Shown: in pieces, positions 1-39,761 of the stretch
Layout of the letters: every line of letters starts with the position of its first letter
How positions within the stretch are numbered: the stretch's first letter is position 1
Translations under genes and position numbers: made by a program
Notes under the pieces: generated by a model
What the model saw: the letters and a program-made list of their open reading frames with translations, nothing else
What the model was told of the DNA's origin: nothing
Databases searched by the model: none
IMG/VR virus record: IMGVR_UViG_3300016667_000424
Location: 1 to 48,833 of that record
Length of the DNA: 48,833 nucleotides
From: a virus
Taxonomy: Duplodnaviria; Caudoviricetes
Reading direction: 5' to 3' (one strand)

Positions 1-198
1 CCGCATAGCCATGTGTCTTGTCATACAGCAACGAGACGAGCAGACCCTCAGGAGCGTCCTTCATCTTGGCCATACGCTTCCTCATGTCGTCGGCATCATT
101 TACGTTTCCGAACGTCGCATCCATCGACTGCTGGCTTCCAGCGTTGTTCCTATACTCGCTGGCGATATGTTCGATGGCCCTGCCGAAGCTGGTCTTCT
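1..198. repeat. Terminal direct repeat, left copy (circular-assembly overlap)
   Basis: Identical to 48636-48833 except A27 vs G48662; lies inside a coding frame. Confidence 0.97.
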
Positions 199-3100
199 CT
201 GACTCCCTGCTCATGCCTTCGGCGAATGCCTCTGGGAATTCGTCGATGACTTTGTGTCCTGCCTCGATGAGCCAAGAGCCGAGGGACTTACCGGTTCCAT
301 CGATTTCAACCTGATGCTCGAATCCTAGGTTCTGTGAGCGGATTCTGTCGATGAGGTTGTTGTACATCCCCCTCTTGCGGACGACGTCTAGGATGTAAGC
401 CGCGGATGACAGGTCTGCGTTTCTGGTCCCGACCATGAACATGCGTCCGCCGCCGAGGTTGACGGCATGGTTGACATAGCCGACGGAGCCATACCTGCCT
501 CGGTGATGCCTTGCGTCTGCGATAACGAGCGCCCTATGCCTCTTGGCCAGAGCGTTCATCACATAGGCGTTTACGAGGATAGGCCTGTAGGCGTTGTCTT
601 CGCCATGCGGGATGGAGTCTGGCAGATTGTAGGTCTGGATGTCTCCGTCTTCGTCAAGCTTGAGCCCGGCTTTCTTGGCTAGGTCTGCCTGCTGTGCCTT
701 AAGCTGTTCCAATTCGCTCGTAGTATTATAACTGCTCCAGACTGTGGCGACGAATGGAGAGACCGCTTCCATCATCCTGCCAAGCATGGTGTTCGCGTTG
801 TGCTGGATGCTGTCATACATCGCGCTAATCCTCATGTTGGCCGGGTCATGCTCGTAGTCGGTGGCACGGAACATGTATCCGAACCTGTTCACGAATTCAT
901 GCTTCGTGTCATAGTTTCCGTCCATCATCTCGTCCAGCCACCTGAGGATGTCCTTGTTGTCGTTGAGCTTGGTCCTGCCATGTGCGAAATCGACCAAGTC
1001 CTTGTCGGTGAACTTAACCACCGACGGGTCGTCCTTGAGCATAGCCTGAGCGACCTCTTCTTGAGTGACGCCGAGGGCATCCGAAGCGAACGCTAGGGTG
1101 GTGGCAACAATTCCCCTAGGAGACTTAAGCGTCTTGTCCTTGTGGAGCTTGTACTTTCGGAACAAGGGCTTGATGCCAGTCGCATCAGGTCCGACCTTTC
1201 CAATCCTGCTTCCAATCTTGGCAACGAACTCGACGACCTTTTCGTCCGGAGCGATGGCGAAGACCTGCTTCCTGTCGATGAACTTCTTGTCGAAGTTGGC
1301 ATCGTCAGGATTGATGGAGACATACCTATGAGAGTTATCACTACTTCCGCTCATCTCGGAATTCCTGACTTGGAAGGCCGCCTCTTCGGCGTCGATTGTG
1401 GACATCGTTTCCATGATGTTGGTCATCTGGACAAGCCTGTTAAGGTTGACCCTAATCTGCTTGTGGTCGCCGAACTGGCGGAAGAAATCCTCCCTGAGCT
1501 TGGGGTCTTTGGCCAGAACCCTGAGCTTTGCAGTCCAATTCTTGGCTAGCATGTCGAAGTCAATCTTGCCCTTGAACTGCTCGACTGCGCTGTAGTCATT
1601 TCCGGAAAGCTCTGCCAGCTCCCTAGCGACGCCGATGAACTCAGGGCTCATGGCCAAGAACAGCTTGGCGAGACCTGCGACATGCCTTTCGGAGCTTCCG
1701 GATGGAATGAAGTTTCCGAACTTGAGATTTCCAAATCCGGGAACAGCAAGGTTTGCAGGCATCAGGAATTGCCTGAGCACCTCAGGATTCATGCCTTCAA
1801 TCGGATGAAGGGTTGTAGCCCTATACTTCAGCAGGGTTTCCTGCGTCAGGGGGCCGCTCGGATACACATCAGGAATGCTGGCAGGAAGCCCGTAGTTAGT
1901 CTGAAGGTTCTGCGGGACAGGGATGAACTTGCCGCTGGGCTTCCACTCGGAGCCGCCAAGCTGGCTTAGCATGTACCTAGTGAATGGACCGGAGTTAGTG
2001 ATTTCATGATGGGCATATGCCCCGTAGAAGTAGTTGTTTAGTACATACCTAGCAGGGCTCCCTCCGTTGTATGTATTCAGGTACAGGTCCTTATGTCCTT
2101 CGCCAACCCTCATGGCCGCGAGCTTATCTGTGATTTGCTTTGCCTGAGCCCTGAGGCCCGGAATCTCTTCGATTTCCTTGAACGTGGCATACAGGGTGTA
2201 TTCAGGGTCAAGCGTAGGACCGAACGTTTTTCTCTGGTAGGTATCAGACTGCAATTCCTCGATGAACGAGACTGGAATCTGCGCCTCTTCAAGCCTTTCG
2301 CGTCCATAGGACTTCAGTTGCTCGAAGATGCTGGCAGGAGTGCTGAGAACGGGAAGAGCCGTAGGAACAGTAGCGTCCGTGACTCGCAGGTGGCCGAGCA
2401 AGTTGTACCCCTTGTCGCGAGGAGCACCCTTGTGGCTGGTCATGTACTTGGCGTAGTTTTCTCCGATTGCCTTCCTGACCTTGTATACATGATTCGCCGC
2501 GTCGATGGCGCTCCTGAACTTGGCCTTTTCCGCCGGGTCGGTTGCGGCATTCATTGCACCTTCCAGCTTTTCGATGTAGTCATTGAACGCAGTACTGTCA
2601 GGCGTAACTTCGGTGAACAAGGCCGTGTACACATGTTCTCCTAGGCCTGAAGTGTAACCAGCGTATCCATGGTCATCGCCCTTGTTGTAGCCATACTTGT
2701 CCTGAGCTCCTGCGGCCCGGTCATGGTATTCTTCGATGGCAGTATCCCAGTCGCTAAGGTGGAGTCCGGAAGCACTAAGCTGAGTGGAATCCATCGTCAG
2801 AGGGTCTCCGATTTCAATCTCAATCCCCTGAAGAGATGCCAGATTCTCAAGCTTGGCCTTGGCGACTGAGGAATTGATGTTGAGCCTGTAGGTCTCAAGC
2901 AGGGGAGCGGAGAACTGCAGAATTCGGTCTGGATTCTTCTGAAGCTCGTCGAGGATTCGCATGACGACGACGGACGATTCAGCGCCCTCAAGGCCGAGTT
3001 CCTTCACAAGCGAAGTCATGATGTCCTTGTTCATGACCTTTTCGTATGCGTCCGTAAGTGCGGACAGGTGCATGTCCTTGAGCGTCTGGACGGCCGTCTG

Positions 3101-6100
3101 CATCGCAGGAGCGGAATCGTCAGTCGCCTTGGTAAGTGCATTGTCGATAGCACCGAAGACGTTCTGCACCATCTTGAGCGTACGGCTTGCGTACAGCATC
3201 TTCGACGCGACGAAGTCGATGTTGTGAGGATTCCTGATGACCTGATTGAGGCTCTGATTGGTCAGCTTCTCGTAGTGTGGTTGCCACACCTTCCTGCCCT
3301 GAAGCGGGTAGAAAACGTACAGGTAATCGAATAGCTCCTTCTTGGTCAGGTTGTTCTTCCTGTTAGCGTACAGGAACTCGGCCATGCCAGTCGCCCTGAG
3401 CTCGTTCTTGGAGACAGTATTGGCCATGAGCAGGTCGAACCACTCAAGTCCGGTACGGACTTCCTTGACCCTCTTGTTCTTGTCCATGCCCTTGATGATG
3501 GCGTTGACCATCTTCGAGATGAACTGAACAGGGCTTCCGCCGATGGCGAAGGTGGACCTATGTCGAAGGATGGACTCGAGCTCAGACTGGCTGTGGTCTG
3601 CCAAGCTGAGGCTGATTCGCTCCTGCTTTGGGGCCTCCATAGTAAGGACATCTCCCTGCCTGAGCAGGCTGGCGACAGCCTTGGCCGCTTCTTGGGTATC
3701 GAAGGCTTTGCCTAGGTTGCCGACGCCATACTTCTTTCCGGCGCCCCACAGGTGGTTTCCGTACTCGCCGACATCTCCCGGCTCAACGTAAAGGCGGGTG
3801 CTTTGCTGGACCTGAGCAGACATGCCTTTTGAGTTTCCAGACGACTCGACCCTGAGCGAGTCCCTGTTCGGAGTAGCCTTGGCCACTTCGGCTTGGATGT
3901 TGCCTGCGGAAATCTTGTCTGCGAGAGCGTTGGCTTCTGACTCCGTGTTGAAGTTCCTGACCATTCGCTTGACCTGCTTCTTTCCGTCGGTTCCGACAGG
4001 GCCGAACTCGTTCCATGCGATTGTCCAACGCTTCTGTGAGTTCTTGAAGACAGTAAGGTTCAGGGAGTCGCTGGTGTCCCAAGAGTAATGCTTGAGGTCG
4101 CTTCGTCCGGGGAACATGGCCTCGATTGCCGCGGACCTGTCTCCGTACATGGCGAGAGACCTTTCGCTGTCTGGCAGGAAGTATCCGGATTCGCCCGACA
4201 TAATCCTGTGGAACGCAGAGGTGAGGTCTCCATGGAAGTTCGGATTGACGGAATTGACGGACCTAGCGGCCGTTTCCATCATGGTCACGATGTTGCCTTG
4301 GGTGGTAGCCGTGGAAGACTGCATGCCCATCAGCTGTAGCTTCGGGTTGACAATTTCTTCCCGCTCGAAGCTTTCCCTCATCGTATTAAGCAACTTTAGG
4401 TGAGCGTTCTTCTCGTCTTGGTAGTAGGTGAGCCTTTCGATGTGGGTGGCCAGCACAGGGCCGTCCATGCCGAACTGGACTGGAGCTCCACGCATCTTCG
4501 CGTAAGGGCCAGTCACGGACATGGCCGAAGCGTAGTGATTGAGGATTGCGGTATTGAAGTCCTCAATCTTCGCATTGGCAGGAAGCACGAACGTGAAGTA
4601 CGCGAAGTCCTGAGAGATGTCGTGCATCACCTCGTCGGCATAGGCCGCGAGCTGAAGCGCTTCCTCGGGGCTGGCAGGAATGTTTCCTTCGATTAGCTGA
4701 GACAGGCGAGCCCTGACATCTCCGGACATTTCCCTGACATACTTGGGCCTCATGGAGGCACCGCCGACTAGCTTGTTGTGCGTCCTTCCTCCGAGGAAGA
4801 TGTCCCCGTTGAGAAGCTTATGGACTCCCTTCAGGTAATCCCTGACGCCGACGTCATCGAGGCCAGAATACCCTCTGGCGACATTGAGGAACGGGAGCTG
4901 TTCCTTGGTGTTTCCACCGCCAAGGGCCTTGCTCATGCCGAAGATGGACCTTCTGGCTAGGGACTGTGAATAGGCCGTATCGTTGTTGGCGTCCCAGCCG
5001 ACGGCCCTGAGGAGAGGGATGCCGACTGCCGGGTTCTGGATGTCGGAGTCATGGACGATGTCGTAAGTCGCCGTGATGTTGGTGTCCGGAGAGAAGTTCA
5101 CCAAGATTCGTCCGTCCTCAAGACGCTTCCAGCTGATTCCGATTCTGCCGTAGTCCTTTTGGTGAAGCTGGGTGCCGAAGCCCGTGGAGCCTGCCCTGCT
5201 CATGACCTTGCCGATGTGGGACTGCTTGGACATGATGACGTTCCTCCTGTCTTCGACGGACTTGATGGACATCATCGAAGGATGCGGAGCGGCGGTCAGG
5301 TTAAACCTAGCGGCCGGGGTAGAGACCTCCTGCTTGCCTAGCTGTTTGGCTACGGAAGCGATTCGGTTGGTGATTAGGCTACGCTTGATTGCGCTCTTTA
5401 CGACTGTGCCGACGCTGGGGACGTTCAGAGAGCCAGCTCCGGAGCCGCCAACCATGTAATCGGAATCGGTGTAGACGCCGCGTCCGTTAGAATCGCTGGT
5501 CTTCAACCTGAGCACTCCATCGGAATCCTCGGAGAACATTCCAGCGAAGGTAAGATGCTCCGTGGTGTTGTGATGTGCCTGATTGATTGCATCCAACACA
5601 GTAGCGCCTTCGACGGCATCAGCCATGATTTCAGGAGACCTGTTCATGACTAGGTCGAACGTGTCGTCCTGACCGAACATTGTCCACTCAATCCTAGAAG
5701 TGGCGGCGGAGTACTTGGCAGTCGGGCTAGGTCCGTAGGCAGTATCGAGATACATGCCGACGCCTTCCCAAGAGCCATTGGACATTCCCGGAGTGATTGC
5801 GGGGTGATGCCTATAGGTGGACAGCTTGGCTCCGTACATTGGGACAAGCAAATCAGGGAACTCGGTATCAGTCCTGCTCGTCATGATTGGCGAGTCCATG
5901 ATGTTGATGTTGCGGGCTTGGAACGGCCTGCTGTTGTATCTGCCAGTCTGGGCGAGCGGATAGGACTTAGCCCTCCTGTCCTTCATGGCCTGAATGGAGA
6001 CGGCCATGCCAATCCAGAACTCGCCGCTTTCGTCGGCCATGGCGGATTCCATGAGCTTGGACAGCTCGGTGGAAAGGTATCCCGTGCCGACCATGTCAAT

Positions 6101-9100
6101 CTTGCTAGCCAGAGCGGAGTGCTGACCCATCAGGTGGTCGAGACCCATGGCAGAGCCGAAGTTAAGGGCTCCCTTCATCGAGTAGCCGAAGTTGGCCGGA
6201 AGCTGGTTGTTCTTTGAGAAATCGACGCCAGCGACGAGACCCAGCATGGTCATGATTCCAGACGAAGCCATCTGGGAGGAGGTCTCATGGGCGAGCATGA
6301 AGATGCCCTGCTTGTCGATGTTCTTAATCCAGTCCTTGGCCACCAAGGCGATTTCTTCCTTTGATGCTCCCCTCTCGATGGCCTCCATGACGGCAGGATA
6401 CATCTCGTTGAAGAATCCGAAGTTGGTAAGAGCGACCTTACCTTCGGGGGTAACGTTAGGAATGCCGACCTTCAGCTTGCCGAACAGGTGAGGCATGGCG
6501 ACGGCACCAAGCGTCGCATTGGTGACATGGACCGCGCTCTCAGAAGCGAAGATTGTGGACTTGTTCTTAGAGATGACGGGCTGTGCCATCTGGATGTTTT
6601 CCTGTCCGAGCAGCGACATGATTCGCCCAATCTGGGCCTGAAGGAACGCGCTGTTGTTGTTCCTGTCCGGATTCTCAAGCATCATCAGTCCCATTACGGA
6701 CTGAACCGCAAGGACGTTGCCGCCCAAGTAATAGGCCATTGGTCCGTTGCTGAGAGAGACGGCGGAAGTCTTGCTGTTGGGAGCGTACTTCTCAAGGTAC
6801 TCGACAAGCACTTCTGCCCTATCAAATCCTCCGACAGAAGCTTCTAGGTTGGCCTTGAACTGCTCGGGATTCGCATGTGCGTCCTCAAGCCTGAAGGCCT
6901 TGGGCCTGAGCATGCTGAACAGGCCGTGGTTGACAGTATTCTCAAGGTTGTGGAATGACCTGTTGTAGGCCGTGATTGCCTCGACTGGGATTCCTCGACC
7001 TGCGACATTGACCGGGAACGAGTTCATTCCCGTGACGTCGGCGTTGTCAGGGTCTAGGTTGATGATGGCTTTTCCGTCTGGCGCGACCATGCCGAAGACT
7101 CCGGTGAGGGACAGGCCTCTGTTCCTGACCCTGTCGGACGAAAGGAAATCGACGATTTCCATGTTGTGACTCGGAGACAGCTTCTTGCTGTAGACGGACT
7201 TGTCTGCGGCATCGTTGGTAAGCAGGGTCTCTTCCCAGACCTCGTAGATTTTGGAAATGAGAGCGGTCTGAGCGGAAAGCTTTCCGATTCGCTCCTTCAT
7301 GTCATCCCTGATGGGCTCCATGAAGGCGATTCGTTCCGCGAGCGGCATGGCCTTGATTTGATTTACGCCGTTGCCTACGAACCTGTCGTCTCCGACGTCC
7401 TCGAAGTACCTTTGCAGGTCATCCAAGTCCAAGTTATTGATGTCATCCTCGTTACGGATGACCCTTTCGACGTCGGCCAGAAGGGATTCAAGGTAGCGAA
7501 CATTGCCAGAGATGTCGTTGACCGAACCCTCAAACGCCCTCTTGAGCTCGGAATAGCTTCCGTCCCTAGAGAACTTGTAGGGCATGACGAGAAGCTCCTC
7601 CTGAGGGGTGGAGTTGACGTCGTAGTATACGGCGGATTGGCTGACGTTATCGAGGCCAGAGTTGACTGCGTTGGTCGCAATCTCGGCGTTCATGTTTGCT
7701 CCGGGCCTGATGACCTCAGAGACGTCAGCGCTAGCAAGGGTGACGGATTCTTCCGCGTGGTGGATGTACGCACCAAACAGGGAGCTAATCATCGTCGGAA
7801 TGAATCCGGTATGGCTTACTGCCCTTTGTCCGCTCTTGAGTCCGAACACGGAATCATTGCTGGCTTTGAGTCCGTACCTCTGAATCATCGTGGACGCAGA
7901 GCCAGAAGAAATTCCGAAAGTTTCTCCTACGCTAGAGAGGGTGTCGTCTCTCATTCCGACAGCGAGAGCGTCAGAACCGACGGCCACCCTGAGGGTTGAT
8001 TCTTCGAGCTCAGAGAGAAGGACAGAGTAAAGCTTCCTAGAGAACTGCTTGTCTTCTTCTGCGAGCCTCTGGATTTTGTCCACCGCGGCCTTGATGACCG
8101 GACCGATGAGAAGGGAAGCCCTCCTCATCCTTTCGTTCAGCCTTCCGACCATGTCGGGATTGATGATGACCTTGGGAAGGTTCTGGACGAACTTGGAGCT
8201 ATCGAACCTCTGCCTGAATTCGGCCCAAGCATCCTCAGGGCACCAAGAAGGCCTGCTCAGTCTGAAGCTAAGCTTGTTAGCGGTCCACTTGAACCTACCA
8301 AGCTCCATCTCAGCGCCGCTAGCCCTAGCAGGGTAAAGTTCTCCGATGCCAGCCGCCATGGCCGAGCCGACGTTGTTGTCGTCGGTGAGCTTGGTGACAA
8401 TCTTCCTGAAATCAGCCTGAGAAATGGTCCTGTTTCGCATGTCGGGGATTGCCCCGATTCCGCTCGTCACAGCCGCCGTGCTGAAGGTGATGTGGTTGAA
8501 GGCCAGAATGTTCAGCAGGTCGTTCTTGGTAAGGACCATGTCCTTCATCTTCGAATCGACCGCGTCAAGCATGACGGCCTTTGCGGACTCTTCCGTAAAC
8601 ACGCCGAGCTTCATCAGCTCAGACCTGATTTCTCCGCCAAGAACCATCGGCGGGAATCTGTCAGAGTTGATGATGTCGATGACGCCGTTACCGACGGACA
8701 AGACGTCTTCGGATTCGATGACGAAATTGGCCAGCTCAGCAAAGTCCTTGATGGTGTAGGTCCTAGGTTTCCCGCTTGCCCCGGTGGTCTCGGGCATGCC
8801 GAGGAACTGGGCGTTCGGGTCGCCATAGCTCGGGTACTTGTCGAATTGAGACCTGTTCTTGGCGACGAGAGCTTCCTTGGTCTTCTCGTAGTCTCCCTTT
8901 ACGATGTAGCGACCCGTGGTAAGAACCATCCTGCCATTGTCGTCGATTTCCCAGCCTTCCTGACTGATAACGAACCTGCCGAGGTCCCTGAGTTCGTTGT
9001 TGGCCTTGCCCATGAAGAACCTGACGACTGACATGAATCCGAGCGTTGCGGAGGCGGGGTTGTCCGCCGGGTCAGCGCCGATTCCAGCGATGGAGTTCAT

Positions 9101-12100
9101 CAGGGTGGAGCCGCCAAGCTCCCTAGCCCTGACTCCAGCCTTGTTCATAGACGAGTCGATGATTTCAAGGACGGAGCTGTTCTCTGCCAAAGCCCTGTCC
9201 TTAATCGCCAGTTCCTCCTGAGTGAGACCACGCCTCTGCATGGTGGTGAACGCCTGACGCTCGACGGGCTCGATGACATACTCCATGGCCCGGTAGTGCC
9301 TGAACGCCTTTGCGAGTGCGACAGTCCTGCCATCGGGATGCCCCTTGATGATGTCATCATAGCTGGACACCATGCCCATTGCATCAAAAGCGGCCCTGAA
9401 CTCCTTGTTCTCGGCCATGACAGACAAGTACCTAGGATTAGCGTCAGCGACGGCCTCCTTGAACTCGTCAAACTGCTTGAAGACCTTGTAAGCGTCCTCG
9501 GTGGTGTCGATGTTCGACGCTTGCCTGTGGAGGAACTCGGCCTTCCTGTAAAGTTCGTCAGAGATACGTCCTGCGGTGTGCTCGAAGGTGACGAACTCCA
9601 TCATGTTCCGCGTAGCGGTCTTCATGAGGGGTTTTGCGTGAAGACGCAGGCTGGCAATCACGGGAGCGTCCGGGTGGTCCACGAAGTTCTGGATGACCTT
9701 CAAGGCCGCACCAGCGCCTCCGTACTTCAGGTCGCCATACCCGATAACAGGTGCCTTTTGGATTCCAAGGAGCTTGGCAAAGCTTGCCTTAACGTCCTCA
9801 GGGTTGACGCCCTGAATGGACCTATGCTCTCCGAGAATGTTGCCAGACCTCTGCAGGATGTGCTGGATTTCATGAACGAACAGCCCGGTGATGTAGTTAC
9901 TTCCAGAGTACCTGCTATTCAGGCTTTCGGTATCGATTCGGAACTTGTCAGCTTCAGGAGGAAGGCCGAGCTTTTCGTAGGCAAGAGCCCTAGCTCCGAT
10001 GTTGATTAGGAAGGTGCCGTCGCTCCTTCTGCCAGCCTGAGCCCCATGGATGTCGATGAAGTTGACATCGACGTCCTTCAGCCAAGGGAAATACTTGTAG
10101 AGAAGGGTGTGACCGAAGACATTGCCGAGCTTGGTGGTGCCCAGAATCTGGTCCCTAGGCATGAAGACCTCTAGGCCCGGAGTCGTGAACCTACGCTCGA
10201 CCTCCTTCTGGTAGTCGGAGAAGGCCTTTTGCGGGTCAGCGCTGAAGGCAAACGGGAGCATGTGAGGCTCTCCGTTGGACGCGGAATAATCGACGAAAGA
10301 ATCCCTGTCGGACAGCTCGAAGATTTCGGTATCGACGCCTTTAATGGTCACACGCTTCAGCAGGCCGAGCTTGCTGAGTTCTTCCTTGTGTTCCTTGCTG
10401 AGTCCGGAGGCATCGGCAATCGAGTTCATGGTCTTAGGCTTGTTCCTAAGAGACTCGAACTGTCGGGCCTGAGTGGAATGTGCTTGGTTGATTGCCTTGA
10501 CTAGGTCTTTTGCCTTTTTGAGCTGGGCAGGGCTGGCACCGAACTGAGCGTAGTACTTACGCTCCATGATGGTGTCGAACGCCTTGCTGATTGGAGACTC
10601 ATCTCCGCCAATCGCCCAATACCTCTGCATCTCAAGGGTCCAGTTGGCGACTGCTTCGTCCATGAACCTAGACGCGAGCTCTTGAGGCGTAGCGTTTGCG
10701 GTACCGATGGAATTGATTCTTTCGTCAGGATTCCTAGCCTTTTCGATTGAATAAACGCCCTGAGCGATGCCAATTAGGCCCTTGTCTCCATTGGCGATTA
10801 CCTCGCCGTAGAGACCTTCTGCGTAGGCAAGCCTATCCTTCGGGGTTCCCTGAGTCTGCTCGAATGCGCTGGCAAGCCTGTTAAGTGCTGGCTCCAGCTC
10901 CGGGTTCATCGACATGATTGCGGCGTCAAGCACCCTGAAGTGCAGTCCGCCTTCGATGTCCCTGACGCTGAGCTTCTTCTTTTCAGGGAGAAGGATTGTG
11001 CTGACAAGGGCTCCGTAGGGGGAGTTGCCCTTATTCATCATGGCATCGGACGGCTGGGCATACTTGGACGCCACTTCGGTTCCGCCATAGACGCCTGAAC
11101 GCATGGCCATCTTGCCCGGCATGGCAGTTGCAACCACGCCCTTAGAAGAGACGATTTGCGTCACGCCCCTATCTGCAAAAATCGCCAATGGGTTGGCATT
11201 TGCAATCTTCAGCTGTTCCAAGGTGTACTTGGCGCTGATGTAATCATGGCTCGCGGAGGTGGCGACAACTTCGCCGCTGGAACCTTTGGTGACCTTCTGT
11301 ACGATTGAATGAACAGATTCGTTCATCACTCGTCCGACCTTCTGGAACAAGGATTCCCTGATTTTTTCCGGGGCGACGTTAATTACCTTGAGGGCTTCGT
11401 CGATTTTGCTGACGCCGTTGACGTCCTTGAACGCTAGCGCGTAGCTGACTCCTCCGTCTGCCGAAGGATACGGAATCCAGACGCTGTCATCGTTGAGGGC
11501 GGAATCCACATAGGAGATTGTGGCAAGAAGTCCGTCCTTGATTGAGTGGAAGTTGTTGTCGAACCATCGGGGATTCTGCGGCCTGACCTCAGCAAATCTT
11601 TGCAGGATAACCTCAGACCTGCTCGTAGGCTTGAACCCTTTCTTGAAATTAGAGGCAAAATCAGAACCGCTCGTAGACTTCTCAAGAATCGACTTAGCCT
11701 GCTCGGAGTCGCCGAGCATGAATGCGTTCTCAGAGTTGTCGTTGGACGGATTCCTATTCCTCTCGGACAGGCTTCTCTTGATTTCGGCCTGAATCTGTCC
11801 GACTTCCTGCTTCCTGTCCTTGACGTACTTTTCCGGGTCTTCCGATAGGGCTTTTAGCGTAGACGCCAGCTTGTAATGTGCGCCAACGACATCCCTGCCT
11901 TCTGGTGCATGATTGAGGGTGGGGAGCCAATAGGACATGTTTTCCCCGTACGGACTCATCGCCATGCTCATCGCCTCGATTGAGGACTCGATGGCGTAGT
12001 TGAGCATCTTGGACTTTGCCTCATCGTTGACTCCGTACTTCTCGATGTGGTCGTAATCGATGAGGATGGACATCACTCCAGTCTGAGCATGCCTCTGCAC

Positions 12101-15100
12101 GGAGAAGAACCTTCCGTTAGTATCAAAAACGGGACCGAATGCGTTCTTCTTGCTCTCTACGGCGACAATAGGGACGATGGAAGGGTCAAACCTTTCGACC
12201 CTGTTGCTTTCATTCCACTCCTTGAGCTTCTTCAGGCTGGATTTGCTAAGGATGTCATTGAGTGTGATGGCCCTCTTGAGCTTCGTGATGACGTTCCTGA
12301 TTGAGTCAAATCCGCCAATGTACTCAGGATACCAGACGACATCGCTGGTCGGGTCTAGGGAGGCAAGGGACTTCATACCCTTAGCCCTTCCTTCGAGCAT
12401 CCTCTGGGTGTAGGTCTGGTGCGTGATGCGTCCGACCTCGCTCATGTACTGGAGCCTCTGGCTCCTATTCATGTCAGCCCACTCGATTTCCGTGGGCTTA
12501 GGCATGAGGTCAGCAAGGTCGCGCTTGGCCAAGTCCTTCTCGACGGCGATAGCCGCCTTGGCGAAGTCCGCAAACATGCCTACAACACCGCCGAATGGGC
12601 TGAAGACCTTCCACTTAGTTCCGGTCTTGATGACTTCGTAGCCCTGTCCGTTGACAAGCCTTCCGTCGGACATTCCGACCTTCTCGAAGCCAGCGATGGA
12701 ATAGTTCCTGCGAAGGCCTTCATAGGACCTGCCGTGGTGGTACGGCATAGGCTTGCCCGTGGTCAGCTCAAGGCCGACCAGAAGCTCCATCCTCATGCTG
12801 TGGATGGGGTAGTTCGGGTTTTCGTGACTGCTGGAGTAGCCTTCGCGAGGAGAGTTGATGTAGGACTCGTCCTTACGGATGGAGCCGCCGAAGGTTTCGT
12901 ACAGGATGTCCCTGACCTTTTCGCCCTGACCGGGGAAACGCTTGTTGAACAGCTCGGCGGACGGGACGCGACTTCCAGCGTCCTTCATCATGTTGACGAG
13001 GTATTCGTCGAAAGCGTTGTTGTAGGTGTCCAGCGAGACAAAGGTGTTTCGGACGTCAGGCCTGCTCCAGAGCTTCATCTTGCGACGATGGATGGCCATG
13101 TAGTCCACGACAGTCATCAGCATGCCGCCGCGAGGAGTGCGGAGCTGTTTGCCAGCCGCGTCGGTGGTCTTGAGCGTCAGCTTCATCTCAAAGGGCACAA
13201 AGACCCTATGAGTGACAGAGACGTCGTTGCCGAACAGCCTCTGGAAGAAGCCGTTCTTGATGGTTCGCTGGCTGTCGCCCCAGTAAGTGCCCGTGAAGAT
13301 GTTGCTGGTGGCGAATCCGGTGGACTCCCATCGGTTGTATCCGTCCCTGACGACCTTGACGGCTCGCGCGGTCTCGGGGTCGATTGCCCCAGCCGCCTGC
13401 ATTGCGTCGAGCGCCTCATCCTTGATTCGCAACATGTCAACGCTCTGGTTGCCATGCTCGTCGAGGGCGATTTCCGGCCTAAGAGACTCGTCGAGATTCT
13501 TGAAGACCTCGAAGGCGTCCGTAGCGGCCTTCGTGGACATGTCGTTCAGTTCCTTGGTGCCCTTCAGCGTGGCACCGGCCTTGCCGATGTTGAAAAGGAA
13601 TTCCTTCCTGTGGAGCTTGGCTTCAGCGAGCTGTTGCGCGGGGCTCAGCCTGTTGATGGCCTGAGCGTCATGACTGGTCGCATCCCTGACCATCGACTGA
13701 ATGAGCTGGTCGAACTCGGGGGCCCTACGCCAGACGCCGTCGTCGTAGGCTTCGGCTTGAATGGTGAGCTTGCCGTGCATGCCCTTGTTGTTCGGGTCAT
13801 CGATGGCGAAGTCTCCGTACTTGGCCCTGACGCCAGCCATCTCAAGGTCCGTGACCTTTCGAGCGAAGCGCTCGTTGTAGATGCGTTCGAGGTTGATGCG
13901 GAAGGGTTTTAGCTCATCGGGCAGGATGAGATTCTGAAGGTTGGTATGAATGAACAGGGACTCGGCGTATCCGGCGATACCCTCTTCAAACATGAACTTA
14001 ATGGAGTCGAACTTGCCGACAGCGTAGGCGGCAGGAATCTGCTTTCCTTCGGCGTCTGGCATGCTGTGCAACCAGAAAGCGGCCGCACCATTGAAGTTGG
14101 CGCTTTCCCTCAGGTCCCTAAGCTGTTGAAGGTAAAATGCCTTGCTTCCATCCCTGTCCGTGTTGCCGCCTTCGTAGATTTCCTTGGCCTTCTTATTGAC
14201 TTCCGTGACAAACGCAGGGTCGTCTTTGCTGAGTCTGGTAGAGATGTCCTCGACTGCGAGTTCAAGCGACCTGCGTCGAGCCGCTCGCGAAGCAATGATT
14301 TCGTCGCTGAAGATACCTCCGTCTGCCTTGTCTCCGAAGAAACGCCTGAGATGCTCGCCGAGCTTTCCCTTTTCCCTTAGTGAGTAGCTGATGACGTGTC
14401 CGAGAACTTCGTGGCCAAATTCTTGGAACCTATGCTTTTCCCTGTTCAGGAACAGGACAGGAACCATTCCGTCCTTGCCCTTCTTGACCAGAGTGAAGCT
14501 ACCGCCAGCGTCGTCAGAACCGGAGAACTTGGATAGCTGATGCGGGTCGATGCCGTGGCTGACAAGGAGAGCCTCAAGGCTGGCCTTGTTTCCGACGTGG
14601 GTAATCAGGTTCTTCTTGTCCGCGGAGTCGAGCGACTGCCAGAGAATCTGGGCGACGCTACGGGTCTGGGACATGACCCTAGTGGACTTGGTGGCGTCGG
14701 CATAGGAAGTGGCCTCCCTGATGAACGAAGCGTACGACGGGTTAACCTTTTCGACCTGAGGAAGGTAGCCTTCGTCGAAGTTCTTGATGTGGATGTCGTG
14801 GGAAAGGCCTCCGTTGACAAGAGACCAGCCATGCCTGAGGGCTCCGCTGTATCCGCCCCACATCATGCCTTGGGCCGCACCGCCGACAGCACCACGCTCC
14901 TTGTCGGTCATGTATCCGAGGAAGGAGAAGGTCAGGGCATCCTTGTAAGCATGCTTCAGGGACGCTGTGGACAGCTGGATGACCGGGTCAACGACAGTAT
15001 TGAGCATCTTCGCCGTGACTTTTGCGCTCGGCGACAGGAGCGGATTGGCCGCTACGGACTCAAGGATGCTGAGAGAGGTAGGAGTGCCTGCTTCGATTAC

Positions 15101-16258
15101 GCCAAAGCTACGCATGGTAGCCTTGTTTCCGATTTCCTGAAGCAGTTCGGAGGTGGTCCTAAGACCCATCGAGCCGAGGTATCCGACAGTCTGCCTAGTT
15201 CCTCCAGCGACACCTCCGAGGGCCACGGAAGCGTCGGTTGCGACAGTCTCTGCGGCGTTGCGAAGGTAGCCAGACGAGAACCCGGTCCTGCTGGAAAGGT
15301 TGTCGATAGTGCCACCGATTGCGGAGCCAGCGATGTTGGCGGGAATCTCAAGTGCCTTACCGATGCCGCTGAGCGTACCGCCTACGGCCCTCTGGGTGAC
15401 CTTCTGTGCGAAGTTGTCGAACCTCTGGGTGGCAGAGGCGAGCGTGTTGCCAATCTTGCCGAACATGCTGGTCTTGTTGGCAAGACGTGCGGACTGAACG
15501 GCTTTTGAGCTGGCGGCGGCGAGGCCGAGCTCAGCGGAGGCACCGCCCGTGAAAGGAGCGGCGATGATGGAGGGAAGCTCCATGCCGATGAAAGACATGG
15601 CATGGGCGACCTTAGGATTGATGAAGGACCTGACCTTCTTGGCGGTGTCCTCGTCCATGTCCATGTACTGCTCAAGGACGGATTCATCGCCCTGCATCAT
15701 CCTCATGGAATGGTAGTTGAACTTACGGGCCTGATTCCATTGCTGGGCTTCTTCCCTCCAGTTTTGGGACGGCTGTCCGCTCATCAGACCTTTGATGACA
15801 GACTTGAAGCCGAACATGACGGAGTCCGGGTTCTCGGACTCTGCGGCCATGCCCCATAGGTCACGGATGGACCTTACGACGCCTTCTGCCGTGCTAGCGA
15901 CTCCCTTTACGAGGCCACCTTCCGCGATGCCCTCGACGAGGTTTCCGGGGATTGCGGCGATTTCACCACCAGCATCGGCCAAAAGTTGGCCGTAGTCGGT
16001 CACCCTCTTGCTGTAGCCGCGCTTGATTGCGTTCCAATGCTCCTCAGCGTCAGGACGGGACAGGTCGATGCCCTGACTCGGGTCCTCTTCGTAGAACTTG
16101 ATTACGTCCTCGTCGGTCTCTTCCTTGGCGAGGTGAAACCCTGCGGGCCCCTTGCTGATTGAAGGGCCTAGGTCTAGGCTCTTGCCAGCTTGGTTGAGGA
16201 GCATGGCATACCTAGCGGCCTCGTTAAATTCAGAGCCGGGGGGAGTAGAGGGTTCCAT
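1..16258 (-). CDS. Giant polyvalent virion/ejection protein, about 5,717 aa in total; continues at 48635..47740 across the circular junction
   Basis: ATG at 16258 overlaps the upstream TAA (TAATG) and begins MEPSTPPGSEFNEAARY. The ORF track has no terminated ORF in this frame from 16258 to 1, and every segment I hand-translated was open. The frame is in phase with 47740..48759 through the 198-bp repeat. Motifs: APFTGGAS, GHEVLGH..EEGIA, FELSD..GHTLLYKYFPWL..HEIQHILQ, GHLRVTD..FIEELQSD. Confidence 0.92.
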   Translation of the reverse strand, partial: MEPSTPPGSEFNEAARYAMLLNQAGKSLDLGPSISKGPAGFHLAKEETDEDVIKFYEEDPSQGIDLSRPDAEEHWNAIKRGYSKRVTDYGQLLADAGGEIAAIPGNLVEGIAEGGLVKGVASTAEGVVRSIRDLWGMAAESENPDSVMFGFKSVIKGLMSGQPSQNWREEAQQWNQARKFNYHSMRMMQGDESVLEQYMDMDEDTAKKVRSFINPKVAHAMSFIGMELPSIIAAPFTGGASAELGLAAASSKAVQSARLANKTSMFGKIGNTLASATQRFDNFAQKVTQRAVGGTLSGIGKALEIPANIAGSAIGGTIDNLSSRTGFSSGYLRNAAETVATDASVALGGVAGGTRQTVGYLGSMGLRTTSELLQEIGNKATMRSFGVIEAGTPTSLSILESVAANPLLSPSAKVTAKMLNTVVDPVIQLSTASLKHAYKDALTFSFLGYMTDKERGAVGGAAQGMMWGGYSGALRHGWSLVNGGLSHDIHIKNFDEGYLPQVEKVNPSYASFIREATSYADATKSTRVMSQTRSVAQILWQSLDSADKKNLITHVGNKASLEALLVSHGIDPHQLSKFSGSDDAGGSFTLVKKGKDGMVPVLFLNREKHRFQEFGHEVLGHVISYSLREKGKLGEHLRRFFGDKADGGIFSDEIIASRAARRRSLELAVEDISTRLSKDDPAFVTEVNKKAKEIYEGGNTDRDGSKAFYLQQLRDLRESANFNGAAAFWLHSMPDAEGKQIPAAYAVGKFDSIKFMFEEGIAGYAESLFIHTNLQNLILPDELKPFRINLERIYNERFARKVTDLEMAGVRAKYGDFAIDDPNNKGMHGKLTIQAEAYDDGVWRRAPEFDQLIQSMVRDATSHDAQAINRLSPAQQLAEAKLHRKEFLFNIGKAGATLKGTKELNDMSTKAATDAFEVFKNLDESLRPEIALDEHGNQSVDMLRIKDEALDAMQAAGAIDPETARAVKVVRDGYNRWESTGFATSNIFTGTYWGDSQRTIKNGFFQRLFGNDVSVTHRVFVPFEMKLTLKTTDAAGKQLRTPRGGMLMTVVDYMAIHRRKMKLWSRPDVRNTFVSLDTYNNAFDEYLVNMMKDAGSRVPSAELFNKRFPGQGEKVRDILYETFGGSIRKDESYINSPREGYSSSHENPNYPIHSMRMELLVGLELTTGKPMPYHHGRSYEGLRRNYSIAGFEKVGMSDGRLVNGQGYEVIKTGTKWKVFSPFGGVVGMFADFAKAAIAVEKDLAKRDLADLMPKPTEIEWADMNRSQRLQYMSEVGRITHQTYTQRMLEGRAKGMKSLASLDPTSDVVWYPEYIGGFDSIRNVITKLKRAITLNDILSKSSLKKLKEWNESNRVERFDPSIVPIVAVESKKNAFGPVFDTNGRFFSVQRHAQTGVMSILIDYDHIEKYGVNDEAKSKMLNYAIESSIEAMSMAMSPYGENMSYWLPTLNHAPEGRDVVGAHYKLASTLKALSEDPEKYVKDRKQEVGQIQAEIKRSLSERNRNPSNDNSENAFMLGDSEQAKSILEKSTSGSDFASNFKKGFKPTSRSEVILQRFAEVRPQNPRWFDNNFHSIKDGLLATISYVDSALNDDSVWIPYPSADGGVSYALAFKDVNGVSKIDEALKVINVAPEKIRESLFQKVGRVMNESVHSIVQKVTKGSSGEVVATSASHDYISAKYTLEQLKIANANPLAIFADRGVTQIVSSKGVVATAMPGKMAMRSGVYGGTEVASKYAQPSDAMMNKGNSPYGALVSTILLPEKKKLSVRDIEGGLHFRVLDAAIMSMNPELEPALNRLASAFEQTQGTPKDRLAYAEGLYGEVIANGDKGLIGIAQGVYSIEKARNPDERINSIGTANATPQELASRFMDEAVANWTLEMQRYWAIGGDESPISKAFDTIMERKYYAQFGASPAQLKKAKDLVKAINQAHSTQARQFESLRNKPKTMNSIADASGLSKEHKEELSKLGLLKRVTIKGVDTEIFELSDRDSFVDYSASNGEPHMLPFAFSADPQKAFSDYQKEVERRFTTPGLEVFMPRDQILGTTKLGNVFGHTLLYKYFPWLKDVDVNFIDIHGAQAGRRSDGTFLINIGARALAYEKLGLPPEADKFRIDTESLNSRYSGSNYITGLFVHEIQHILQRSGNILGEHRSIQGVNPEDVKASFAKLLGIQKAPVIGYGDLKYGGAGAALKVIQNFVDHPDAPVIASLRLHAKPLMKTATRNMMEFVTFEHTAGRISDELYRKAEFLHRQASNIDTTEDAYKVFKQFDEFKEAVADANPRYLSVMAENKEFRAAFDAMGMVSSYDDIIKGHPDGRTVALAKAFRHYRAMEYVIEPVERQAFTTMQRRGLTQEELAIKDRALAENSSVLEIIDSSMNKAGVRARELGGSTLMNSIAGIGADPADNPASATLGFMSVVRFFMGKANNELRDLGRFVISQEGWEIDDNGRMVLTTGRYIVKGDYEKTKEALVAKNRSQFDKYPSYGDPNAQFLGMPETTGASGKPRTYTIKDFAELANFVIESEDVLSVGNGVIDIINSDRFPPMVLGGEIRSELMKLGVFTEESAKAVMLDAVDSKMKDMVLTKNDLLNILAFNHITFSTAAVTSGIGAIPDMRNRTISQADFRKIVTKLTDDNNVGSAMAAGIGELYPARASGAEMELGRFKWTANKLSFRLSRPSWCPEDAWAEFRQRFDSSKFVQNLPKVIINPDMVGRLNERMRRASLLIGPVIKAAVDKIQRLAEEDKQFSRKLYSVLLSELEESTLRVAVGSDALAVGMRDDTLSSVGETFGISSGSASTMIQRYGLKASNDSVFGLKSGQRAVSHTGFIPTMISSLFGAYIHHAEESVTLASADVSEVIRPGANMNAEIATNAVNSGLDNVSQSAVYYDVNSTPQEELLVMPYKFSRDGSYSELKRAFEGSVNDISGNVRYLESLLADVERVIRNEDDINNLDLDDLQRYFEDVGDDRFVGNGVNQIKAMPLAERIAFMEPIRDDMKERIGKLSAQTALISKIYEVWEETLLTNDAADKSVYSKKLSPSHNMEIVDFLSSDRVRNRGLSLTGVFGMVAPDGKAIINLDPDNADVTGMNSFPVNVAGRGIPVEAITAYNRSFHNLENTVNHGLFSMLRPKAFRLEDAHANPEQFKANLEASVGGFDRAEVLVEYLEKYAPNSKTSAVSLSNGPMAYYLGGNVLAVQSVMGLMMLENPDRNNNSAFLQAQIGRIMSLLGQENIQMAQPVISKNKSTIFASESAVHVTNATLGAVAMPHLFGKLKVGIPNVTPEGKVALTNFGFFNEMYPAVMEAIERGASKEEIALVAKDWIKNIDKQGIFMLAHETSSQMASSGIMTMLGLVAGVDFSKNNQLPANFGYSMKGALNFGSAMGLDHLMGQHSALASKIDMVGTGYLSTELSKLMESAMADESGEFWIGMAVSIQAMKDRRAKSYPLAQTGRYNSRPFQARNINIMDSPIMTSRTDTEFPDLLVPMYGAKLSTYRHHPAITPGMSNGSWEGVGMYLDTAYGPSPTAKYSAATSRIEWTMFGQDDTFDLVMNRSPEIMADAVEGATVLDAINQAHHNTTEHLTFAGMFSEDSDGVLRLKTSDSNGRGVYTDSDYMVGGSGAGSLNVPSVGTVVKSAIKRSLITNRIASVAKQLGKQEVSTPAARFNLTAAPHPSMMSIKSVEDRRNVIMSKQSHIGKVMSRAGSTGFGTQLHQKDYGRIGISWKRLEDGRILVNFSPDTNITATYDIVHDSDIQNPAVGIPLLRAVGWDANNDTAYSQSLARRSIFGMSKALGGGNTKEQLPFLNVARGYSGLDDVGVRDYLKGVHKLLNGDIFLGGRTHNKLVGGASMRPKYVREMSGDVRARLSQLIEGNIPASPEEALQLAAYADEVMHDISQDFAYFTFVLPANAKIEDFNTAILNHYASAMSVTGPYAKMRGAPVQFGMDGPVLATHIERLTYYQDEKNAHLKLLNTMRESFEREEIVNPKLQLMGMQSSTATTQGNIVTMMETAARSVNSVNPNFHGDLTSAFHRIMSGESGYFLPDSERSLAMYGDRSAAIEAMFPGRSDLKHYSWDTSDSLNLTVFKNSQKRWTIAWNEFGPVGTDGKKQVKRMVRNFNTESEANALADKISAGNIQAEVAKATPNRDSLRVESSGNSKGMSAQVQQSTRLYVEPGDVGEYGNHLWGAGKKYGVGNLGKAFDTQEAAKAVASLLRQGDVLTMEAPKQERISLSLADHSQSELESILRHRSTFAIGGSPVQFISKMVNAIIKGMDKNKRVKEVRTGLEWFDLLMANTVSKNELRATGMAEFLYANRKNNLTKKELFDYLYVFYPLQGRKVWQPHYEKLTNQSLNQVIRNPHNIDFVASKMLYASRTLKMVQNVFGAIDNALTKATDDSAPAMQTAVQTLKDMHLSALTDAYEKVMNKDIMTSLVKELGLEGAESSVVVMRILDELQKNPDRILQFSAPLLETYRLNINSSVAKAKLENLASLQGIEIEIGDPLTMDSTQLSASGLHLSDWDTAIEEYHDRAAGAQDKYGYNKGDDHGYAGYTSGLGEHVYTALFTEVTPDSTAFNDYIEKLEGAMNAATDPAEKAKFRSAIDAANHVYKVRKAIGENYAKYMTSHKGAPRDKGYNLLGHLRVTDATVPTALPVLSTPASIFEQLKSYGRERLEEAQIPVSFIEELQSDTYQRKTFGPTLDPEYTLYATFKEIEEIPGLRAQAKQITDKLAAMRVGEGHKDLYLNTYNGGSPARYVLNNYFYGAYAHHEITNSGPFTRYMLSQLGGSEWKPSGKFIPVPQNLQTNYGLPASIPDVYPSGPLTQETLLKYRATTLHPIEGMNPEVLRQFLMPANLAVPGFGNLKFGNFIPSGSSERHVAGLAKLFLAMSPEFIGVARELAELSGNDYSAVEQFKGKIDFDMLAKNWTAKLRVLAKDPKLREDFFRQFGDHKQIRVNLNRLVQMTNIMETMSTIDAEEAAFQVRNSEMSGSSDNSHRYVSINPDDANFDKKFIDRKQVFAIAPDEKVVEFVAKIGSRIGKVGPDATGIKPLFRKYKLHKDKTLKSPRGIVATTLAFASDALGVTQEEVAQAMLKDDPSVVKFTDKDLVDFAHGRTKLNDNKDILRWLDEMMDGNYDTKHEFVNRFGYMFRATDYEHDPANMRISAMYDSIQHNANTMLGRMMEAVSPFVATVWSSYNTTSELEQLKAQQADLAKKAGLKLDEDGDIQTYNLPDSIPHGEDNAYRPILVNAYVMNALAKRHRALVIADARHHRGRYGSVGYVNHAVNLGGGRMFMVGTRNADLSSAAYILDVVRKRGMYNNLIDRIRSQNLGFEHQVEIDGTGKSLGSWLIEAGHKVIDEFPEAFAEGMSRESEKTSFGRAIEHIASEYRNNAGSQQSMDATFGNVNDADDMRKRMAKMKDAPEGLLVSLLYDKTHGYA

Positions 16259-39325: not shown

Positions 39326-39463
39326 GCAACTGGATTGCGTTGTATATCAGCGACTTACGTAAATCACATAAATTTCTGACTACATACGCTTGACCCACGA
39401 CAATCAGAGCACATGGTGAATGGAGTCAGCTGATGAGGCTGACGCTGTTCATTCAAACATTTC

Positions 39464-39536
39464 GGTGGGGCGATACGGGCTATCAACTAGGATTCACATT
39501 CCTAGAACAAGGGTTCAAGTCCCTTCCTCACCACCA
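39464..39536 (+). tRNA. Atypical tRNA-Val(CAC) with a shortened D-arm and encoded CCA
   Basis: Acceptor GGTGGGG/CCTCACC + ACCA; T-arm AAGGG-TTCAAGT-CCCTT; anticodon arm CTAGGA-TTCACAT-TCCTAG; D-arm GATA-CGGGC-TATC. Confidence 0.7.
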
Positions 39537-39540
39537 CTTC

Positions 39541-39611
39541 GGGGATGCTTGGTAGGCCTGTTCAACCTTACATCGACACACGCTCGGGTTCGATTCCCGA
39601 CATCTCCACCA
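39541..39611 (+). ncRNA. 71-nt tRNA-Ala / tmRNA-TLD-like RNA with no D-stem and no mRNA-like domain
   Basis: GGGGATG/CATCTCC + ACCA with G3:U70; T-arm TCGGG-TTCGATT-CCCGA; centre is a single GTAGG/CTTAC hairpin. Confidence 0.7.
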
Positions 39612-39615
39612 CTCT

Positions 39616-39761
39616 GGCGCGACTTAACACCGGGCCTTGGCTACCATCCTCAATTACGAGGTGCCTAAACGCCCCTAGTGGGGCAACTCTTTACGAGGTC
39701 TTGAAACGTGTATGGTAGCACGTCCAAGCGTAAGTCGGTCTAGCATTGCCGAGCCTCACCA
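39616..39761 (+). ncRNA. Unidentified structured RNA of about 146 nt ending in ACCA
   Basis: Nested pairings CTTGG/CCAAG and CTACCAT/ATGGTAG; hairpins CCTC/GAGG, GCCCC/GGGGC and TCGG/CCGA. Confidence 0.55.

Follow-up and report, generated by a model that had tools for sequence, protein, structure and literature searches.

G3:U70 is the main determinant of recognition by AlaRS, and allo-tRNAs combining this pair with non-Ala anticodons suppress amber codons in E. coli, according to the part of Mukai et al. drawn on here (PMC5389517); Ala and Ser are the main residues inserted by allo-tRNAs in the corresponding part of a review (PMC7609411). In those same parts, allo-tRNAs carry alanine identity together with diverse non-Ala anticodons including stop readers, occur in mobile, transposon or toxin-antitoxin contexts, and have acceptor/T stems of 8/4 or 9/3, a D arm resembling that of tRNA-Sec and a long variable arm. 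The tag-less tmRNA of mycobacteriophage DS6A ('TLD only' or 'standard, no CDS', the latter a class of nine entries in PMC11915505) is a short phage RNA with G3:U70, A73, a T arm and no tag in the excerpts of PMC4131195 and PMC11915505 considered here; UCGAC lies in its D loop and is followed by the P2 hairpin and then by a 3-nt linker. M. alvus tRNA-Pyl has no connector, a D loop of 4 nt and a lengthened, interrupted anticodon stem and works, as far as the relevant portion of PMC7609411 goes; in that of PMC11551756, GTA is decoded in E. coli by an engineered tRNA that has a UAC anticodon and lacks the D arm.

A 71-nt element with alanine identity marks

The window, meaning the whole 48.8-kb stretch analysed, is a freshwater phage record rated 100% complete, with genes for terminase, major head protein, RusA, exonuclease VIII, and DnaC-like and Erf-like proteins. 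It holds a 71-nt element (Table 1) that is not a chance occurrence, because the pattern describing its ends matched once in the window and in none of 100 shuffles. The coordinates, ends, G3:U70, discriminator A and 36-nt spacing between acceptor and T arm given in the initial annotation were all recovered in a sequence check, and, in agreement with it, a simple pattern test of the whole window found no resume-like motif followed by a tag-like frame. Its description of a single hairpin and no D stem stood in part: a canonical D stem is absent, but a 2-bp mini hairpin typical of the family described below is possible; a hairpin is predicted in the middle, but it is weak (-3.2 kcal/mol), with 160 of 200 shuffles folding equally well, and the element by itself shows no significant folding energy (z -0.75). 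Taken together, sequence evidence supports an RNA gene that stands alone, bears alanine identity marks, has no tag frame and appears to be actively kept.

The element was called neither by ARAGORN nor by Rfam at the gathering threshold. Its best Rfam match was tmRNA RF00023 (39 bits, E 4.4e-14), under the gathering score of 47 and with an alignment spanning only the acceptor and the T arm. With canonical tRNA-Ala (RF00005) it shares the acceptor identity set, the T arm and the spacing from U33 to the T stem, and it differs in having no U8, no 4-bp D stem, no 5-bp anticodon stem, no variable loop and a Val triplet in place of an NGC anticodon.

By analogy, the element would likely work most like an allo-tRNA, with which it shares the mismatch between identity and anticodon (G3:U70 with UAC). 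The architecture is different: the stems are 7/5, and the RNAs of what is probably its kind, termed type B below, are about 71 nt long, lack a variable loop and combine a D hairpin of 2-3 bp with an anticodon arm of 9-10 bp; the polycistronic tRNA0 rows and two tRNA2 rows in the part of the PMC5389517 supplement considered also have other layouts. Zero or one connector base, a small D loop, a lengthened anticodon stem with breaks and a short variable region are common to type B, M. alvus tRNA-Pyl and type I mitochondrial tRNA-Ser(UCN), but in the latter two the anticodon stem has 6 bp and identity matches the anticodon, whereas in type B the arm is longer and the two disagree.

Table 1. Features of the element and of the adjoining part of the RNA cassette.
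Feature	Position	Strand	Remarks
tRNA-like RNA gene with alanine identity marks, 71 nt (probable type B member)	39541..39611	+	
Acceptor stem, 5' strand (G1, G2, G3)	39541..39547	+	7 bp with 39601-39607; G3:U70
Mini D hairpin, predicted	39548..39555	+	2 bp, GG in loop, directly after position 7, no U8/9 connector; CM alignment
Long anticodon arm, predicted	39556..39583	+	weak in the element's own copy
Outer stem of the arm	39556-39561/39578-39583	+	5/6 pairs, one C.C; abuts T stem
Anticodon-type loop C32 U33 U-A-C A37 U38	39567..39573	+	17 nt before T stem, as in tRNA
Loop triplet UAC	39569-39571	+	would read Val codons
CGACAC motif	39574..39579	+	conserved only in the element's phage group; 10/28 syntenic cassettes
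T arm	39584..39600	+	5 bp and 7-nt loop; G51-C63 pair intact
Acceptor stem, 3' strand, with A73 and encoded CCA	39601..39611	+	A73 at 39608; CCA 39609-39611
Putative cassette leader	39390..39458	+	TTGAC promoter-like site and hairpin 39425-39443; conserved in relatives by eye
Atypical tRNA-Val(CAC)-like gene	39464..39536	+	4 nt upstream of element; ARAGORN; Rfam 31.8 bits

Two layouts of short G3:U70 RNA and the type B family

Pattern scans covering viral, metagenome and genome contigs returned two layouts of short G3:U70 RNA. Type A, a tag-less tmRNA head, runs from a stemless D loop ending in UUCGAC through a hairpin and a GAC linker to the T arm; in type B, probably the element's kind, position 7 is followed at once by a hairpin of 2-3 bp and this by one long arm, the 3' strand of which joins the T stem with no linker. 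The type A hallmarks occur in 32/32 type A sequences by construction, because type A was chosen on those features. The D-loop UYGAY motif and the GAC linker were found in 0 of 12 distinct copies from the element's phage group and, outside that group, in 1 and 7 of 109 type B members, respectively; CGAC at the element's site (39574 onward) recurs in five of these 109. Short phage 'mini-tmRNA' calls thus mix two unrelated layouts. Type A mini-tmRNAs of 62-82 nt are common in phage contigs (L137-L256), where they made up 22 of 94 distinct objects by our rule in a sample from 9/64 parts of the collection.

The initial annotation had likened ATCGAC (39572-39577) to the tmRNA 5' motif and read the element as a tmRNA head binding SmpB, and here it fared poorly. 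The AT of this motif occupies positions 37-38 of an anticodon-type loop and is not part of a D-loop motif; compared with tag-less tmRNAs, TCGAC is shifted by 17 nt towards the 3' end and follows the loop of the arm instead of preceding the arm, and the conserved anticodon-type loop is nothing that an SmpB ligand would need. Acceptor, G3:U70, A73, CCA and T arm agree with a tmRNA head, but the D-loop UUCGAC motif, the GAC linker and the tag frame of a full or split tmRNA are absent; unlike in the DS6A RNA, the arm abuts the T stem and CGAC lies 3' of the loop. Model scores also favoured the other family: the element scored 55.0 bits, aligned end to end, with a type B model of 109 sequences that excluded its own phage group, versus 32.6 bits with a type A model of 32 sequences, and the order was reversed for the DS6A RNA, which was in neither training set (36.6 and 47.1 bits, respectively). 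Ordinary tRNA-Ala reached 53.1 and 45.2 bits with the type B model, so that this score cannot part the element from tRNA-Ala and that separation rests on layout. Its length, mini D hairpin, abutting arm and loop at -17 are those of type B and a paired inner stem is missing; the element very probably belongs to this family, of which it is a loosened member, and it is probably not a stripped-down ribosome-rescue RNA.

A loop-constrained pattern recovered 39 viral and at least 121 genome loci of type B (about 250 genome loci estimated). We parsed 159 loci, among which 125 had at least six acceptor and at least four T-stem pairs, and setting aside eight of these as type A, canonical or off-register Ala left 117. 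The family occurs in phages and in many bacterial phyla, by record title Patescibacteria, Alphaproteobacteria, Acidobacteria, Chloroflexota, Actinomycetota and others, at times beside transposases. With a loop-free pattern it was found in 14/401 genomes of the phylum of G001, several of which hold 2-4 different copies, and in 4/401 genomes of that of G004. Length is 70-72 nt in 107 of 121 representatives. ARAGORN calls only 3/109 members, and an open-access-heavy literature search returned no description of the layout; the family is apparently undescribed.

When 109 members were aligned by sequence only, 80.9% of the cells of the proposed structure were paired versus 62.3 in shuffles, and covariation reached 0.483 versus 0.156, every slid control being lower; acceptor, T-stem and outer-arm pairing belonged to the selection filter, and the mini hairpin did not. 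The latter has at least 3 bp in 61 of 106 members (shuffle mean 37.8, maximum 54); RNAalifold missed it while recovering the outer arm. G:U at pair 3:70 is present in 17/17 rows of an alignment of the phage group with its nearest look-alikes and in 108/109 of the type B alignment, a fixity that is partly by construction of the search patterns. In the former alignment no more than 36% of the outer-stem cells are paired in the model register, yet the stem's own strands pair better than exchanged ones (148/20000 permutations, related rows not being independent) or shuffled ones (36/1000).

Of 49 representatives found without loop constraint, two of them seeds from the loop-constrained scan, 37 have the motif Y-U-N-N-N-A starting 16-17 nt 5' of the T stem, as against a mean of 3.4 and a maximum of 10 in 5000 shuffles and 0-5/49 at other offsets. 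This spacing is that of tRNA positions 32-37, and only 5 of the 37 triplets are Ala-reading. Among the 121 representatives, a set that under-samples G35 because constrained scans excluded it, 108 carry the motif; their 32 different triplets include stop readers, and those reading Gly, Asp and Arg are the most frequent. Close homologs of the element have CCU, UAG and UUG in the same loop register.

Several features of individual type B loci stand apart. The member at L341:2501-2573, whose triplet is GAU, has selA on one side and selB on the other, a place where one might look for genes related to tRNA-Sec. At the small-genome loci L297, L343 and L349, related genes of 545-632 aa and of no clear family adjoin the RNA on either side, all on the opposite strand. 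The tRNA-Ala(UGC)-like genes of phages and bacteria whose D stem is miniature or absent (L416, L418, L419, L422, L424, L433, L436-L439, L444, L454, L010, L011, L264, L282, L302 and L329) possibly link canonical tRNA-Ala with the type B family.

The RNA cassette in related phages

The closest cultured phage is distant, with a best terminase match of 32%, and BLASTN of the element against GenBank phages returned no record covering 80% of it. We gathered 80 related loci via terminase, and ARAGORN found no tmRNA among them. A census with a loose motif placed homologs of the element in 10 of 28 same-cassette relatives, the number of cassettes being approximate; the cassettes variously contain Ala, Phe, Pro, Arg or Val tRNA pairs, single tRNAs and unknown structured motifs. 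The leader includes a sequence that we take to be boxA-like; a sigma-70 scan of the leader called no promoter and listed the hairpin as terminator-like.

In L032, L041 and L042 the homolog adjoins two intact tRNA-Ala genes, and acceptor and T stems have compensatory changes within the phage group with G3:U70 unchanged. In contigs X5, X17 and X18, from three other runs, the match resumes exactly at 39541 after differing upstream sequence, with 96 replaced letters in the joint table. The runs labelled RNA-Seq were flagged as probably DNA contigs and do not bear on expression. The tRNA-Val(CAC)-like gene, swapped for other sequence in contigs that retain the element, thus behaves as an exchangeable module. 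The junction, the tRNA-Ala neighbours and the compensatory changes together exclude a simple deletion scar, which the initial annotation had named as one outcome that would overturn it. An integration-site remnant was likewise rejected, given that both ends are present and the stems have compensatory changes; no integrase family was found in the 26 phage proteins scanned. Other readings were discarded as well: a split tmRNA whose tag half is encoded separately (the window lacks a tag-like frame, and a candidate frame in the downstream module is not conserved), a permuted tmRNA (ends in standard order; RF04321 match of 15.8 bits, E 0.54) and a recoded phage genome, the ORF-poor left 16 kb being one open 5419-aa frame under table 11.

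That frame (2-16258, minus strand) is a single one of at least 5419 aa running off the left end of the record. The relatives inspected share with the window a conserved imperfect palindrome at 39337-39358, on the 5' side of the promoter-like site of the cassette; it is possibly a protein-binding or recombination site. Downstream of the element, two recurring structured non-coding motifs (39615-39690 and 39694-39760, plus strand), neither of which reaches an Rfam family, form separate mobile modules among relatives (L021, L024, L025, L030, L042, L045, L051, L054, L060, L061, L082, L095, L097), and a third structured motif occurs in relatives only (L027, L030, L040, L041, L042, L047, L048). Tandem tRNA pairs for one amino acid (Ala, Phe, Pro, Arg or Val) are frequent in the cassette, with the amino acid differing between close relatives (L032, L041, L042, L047, L048, L057, L080, L082, L095). 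The slots upstream of the element (39464-39536 in the window; L021, L024, L025, L097, L131) are filled by further unusual tRNA-like genes in which the D region is shortened and the acceptor is non-Ala; ARAGORN misses most of them, and their loop triplets sometimes differ between close relatives (L024 and L025). Another G3:U70 RNA, of 77 nt, lies at L040:2760-2836, L047:4839-4915 and L048:3810-3886 (minus strand); CGACAC lies towards its 5' side, its long arm is capped by a UGC loop, the type B model gives it 41-42 bits (L040, L047), and it does not pass the type A model.

Possible roles of the element

At the level of sequence, the comparisons establish identity marks, covarying arms, a conserved length, a U33/A37 loop with a free triplet and retention as a module. 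The reading that we prefer for the element is an alanine-charged missense tRNA that takes part in decoding, to which we give a probability of about 0.4. The element would likely be transcribed together with the phage tRNA cassette, its RNA would be processed, host AlaRS would likely charge it with alanine, and EF-Tu would deliver it to the ribosome, where the UAC loop would read valine codons and insert alanine there at a low rate; GTA and GTG account for 104 of 465 Val codons in 23 phage genes. The benefit may be that ribosomes keep moving over codons whose host tRNA is cut or depleted in infection. AlaRS does not read the anticodon, and U33 and A37 are a requirement of a loop read by the ribosome. 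A long anticodon arm can compensate for a reduced D arm, as in atypical mitochondrial tRNAs, a principle for which a literature search returned no match; in type B, a 9-10 bp arm stacked on the 2-3 bp D stem would preserve the distance from anticodon to elbow. Also in favour of decoding, the element sits where the cassettes of relatives hold ordinary tRNAs.

Several observations argue against decoding. In the element, MFE folding prefers a different weak hairpin and the inner stem is unpaired in the register of the family model, with three non-pairs. In the phage group, six of 12 copies have the loop at -17, three have it displaced and three lack the motif. Across the family, loops are mostly not of 7 nt (among the 108 motif-bearing representatives, 8 nt in 50, 9 nt in 20, 7 nt in 20 and open in 18), A34 triplets such as ACC and AUC are common, and 23 of 121 representatives have G at T-loop position 55. 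Six allo-tRNA(UAU) variants associated with transposons or toxin-antitoxin systems gave no suppression in E. coli in the part of PMC5389517 drawn on, and mistranslation by the element would harm phage proteins as well. As to the purpose, no partner gene recurs among the 147 of 153 selected nearest ORFs at about 80 loci, smpB, Ro60 and selA/selB each flanking one type B locus, and no matching neighbour anticodon backs it: the triplet matches the neighbouring tRNA in the window (Val/Val) but not in L129, L114, L117, L101 or L121. Replacement of a missing canonical tRNA was also discarded, as G170 and G264 hold both kinds.

Extending the missense reading to the family is more doubtful, although type B may form an unrecognised tRNA class of phages, mobile elements and bacteria, notably Patescibacteria, that is always Ala-loaded and decodes dozens of non-Ala and stop codons; this would amount to mistranslation that is natural and programmable, on a non-canonical fold that standard tRNA finders do not see. 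Type B is in any case widespread and mostly missed by ARAGORN, and it combines a reduced D arm and a long anticodon arm with a mismatch between identity and anticodon. Were type B to decode, phages and mobile DNA would carry a natural means of codon-specific Ala substitution or stop read-through, and code expansion would gain a new chassis of small size; otherwise type B would be a candidate class of decoys in conflict over host tRNAs.

A close rival, nearly as likely as the missense tRNA though itself doubtful, is a charged tRNA mimic that does not decode and whose loop is bait for anticodon nucleases, tRNA-modifying toxins or another anticodon-reading protein; the alanine marks would keep the RNA aminoacylated and stable, and the triplet would vary with the enzyme to be distracted. 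Enlarged loops of 8-9 nt (70 of 90 closed loops) and the unusual A34 triplets fit such a role, as do the presence of several different copies in one small genome and of copies extra to canonical tRNAs, G170 and G264 each having a canonical-looking tRNA-Asp arm and a GUC type B member. Mobile contexts point the same way, 12 of the 147 neighbouring proteins being transposases (IS1-like, IS1595, other DDE). Phage tRNAs have been proposed to counter anticodon nucleases, in the portion of PMC10264068 considered, which is in keeping with bait and also with the benefit suggested above for decoding, and some irregular tRNAs are charged yet unused in translation, according to the same part of PMC5389517. 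Bait would need neither a conserved overall length nor intact T-stem pairs, however, stop-reading triplets have no host tRNA to protect, and no nuclease or toxin recurs among the 147 neighbours.

It is improbable that the element is a tag-less tmRNA head that titrates SmpB or rescues stalled ribosomes without tagging. The RF00023 match, the weakness of the anticodon arm in this copy and phage precedents speak for this, the DS6A RNA inhibiting tmRNA in E. coli in the excerpts of PMC4131195 and PMC11915505; CGACAC, conserved in the phage group, leaves room for a protein ligand, SmpB included. The match is confined to acceptor and T arm, though, and the near-absence of both hallmarks, the model scores reversed relative to DS6A and the conservation of U33 and A37, which such a head leaves unexplained, weigh against it; the phage record has no smpB, and one was found among the 147 neighbours.

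Slightly less probable still is a decaying or relaxed copy, from a functional family in a phage lineage that is losing the arm, or a deletion remnant of tRNA-Ala or tmRNA. The broken inner stem, the C.C mismatch and the presence of a homolog in just 10/28 cassettes would suit decay, but the compensatory acceptor and T-stem changes, the homologs beside two intact tRNA-Ala genes and the contigs that keep the element from exactly 39541 with the upstream module replaced speak for maintenance, and no full tmRNA occupies the slot in any of the 80 ARAGORN-scanned loci. Least probable is an alanine donor outside the ribosome, serving tRNA-dependent aminoacyl transferases with a freely drifting anticodon: non-proteinogenic tRNAs exist, and G3:U70 and A73 are fixed while the triplet varies, but a donor would not need U33 and A37 kept, and no transferase gene recurs among the 147 neighbours.

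Among near-identical type B genes, the triplet switches between GUA (Tyr) and CUA (amber) in L335, L337, L347, L351, L356, L390, L392 and L406, and these genes form a natural test set for triplet reading.
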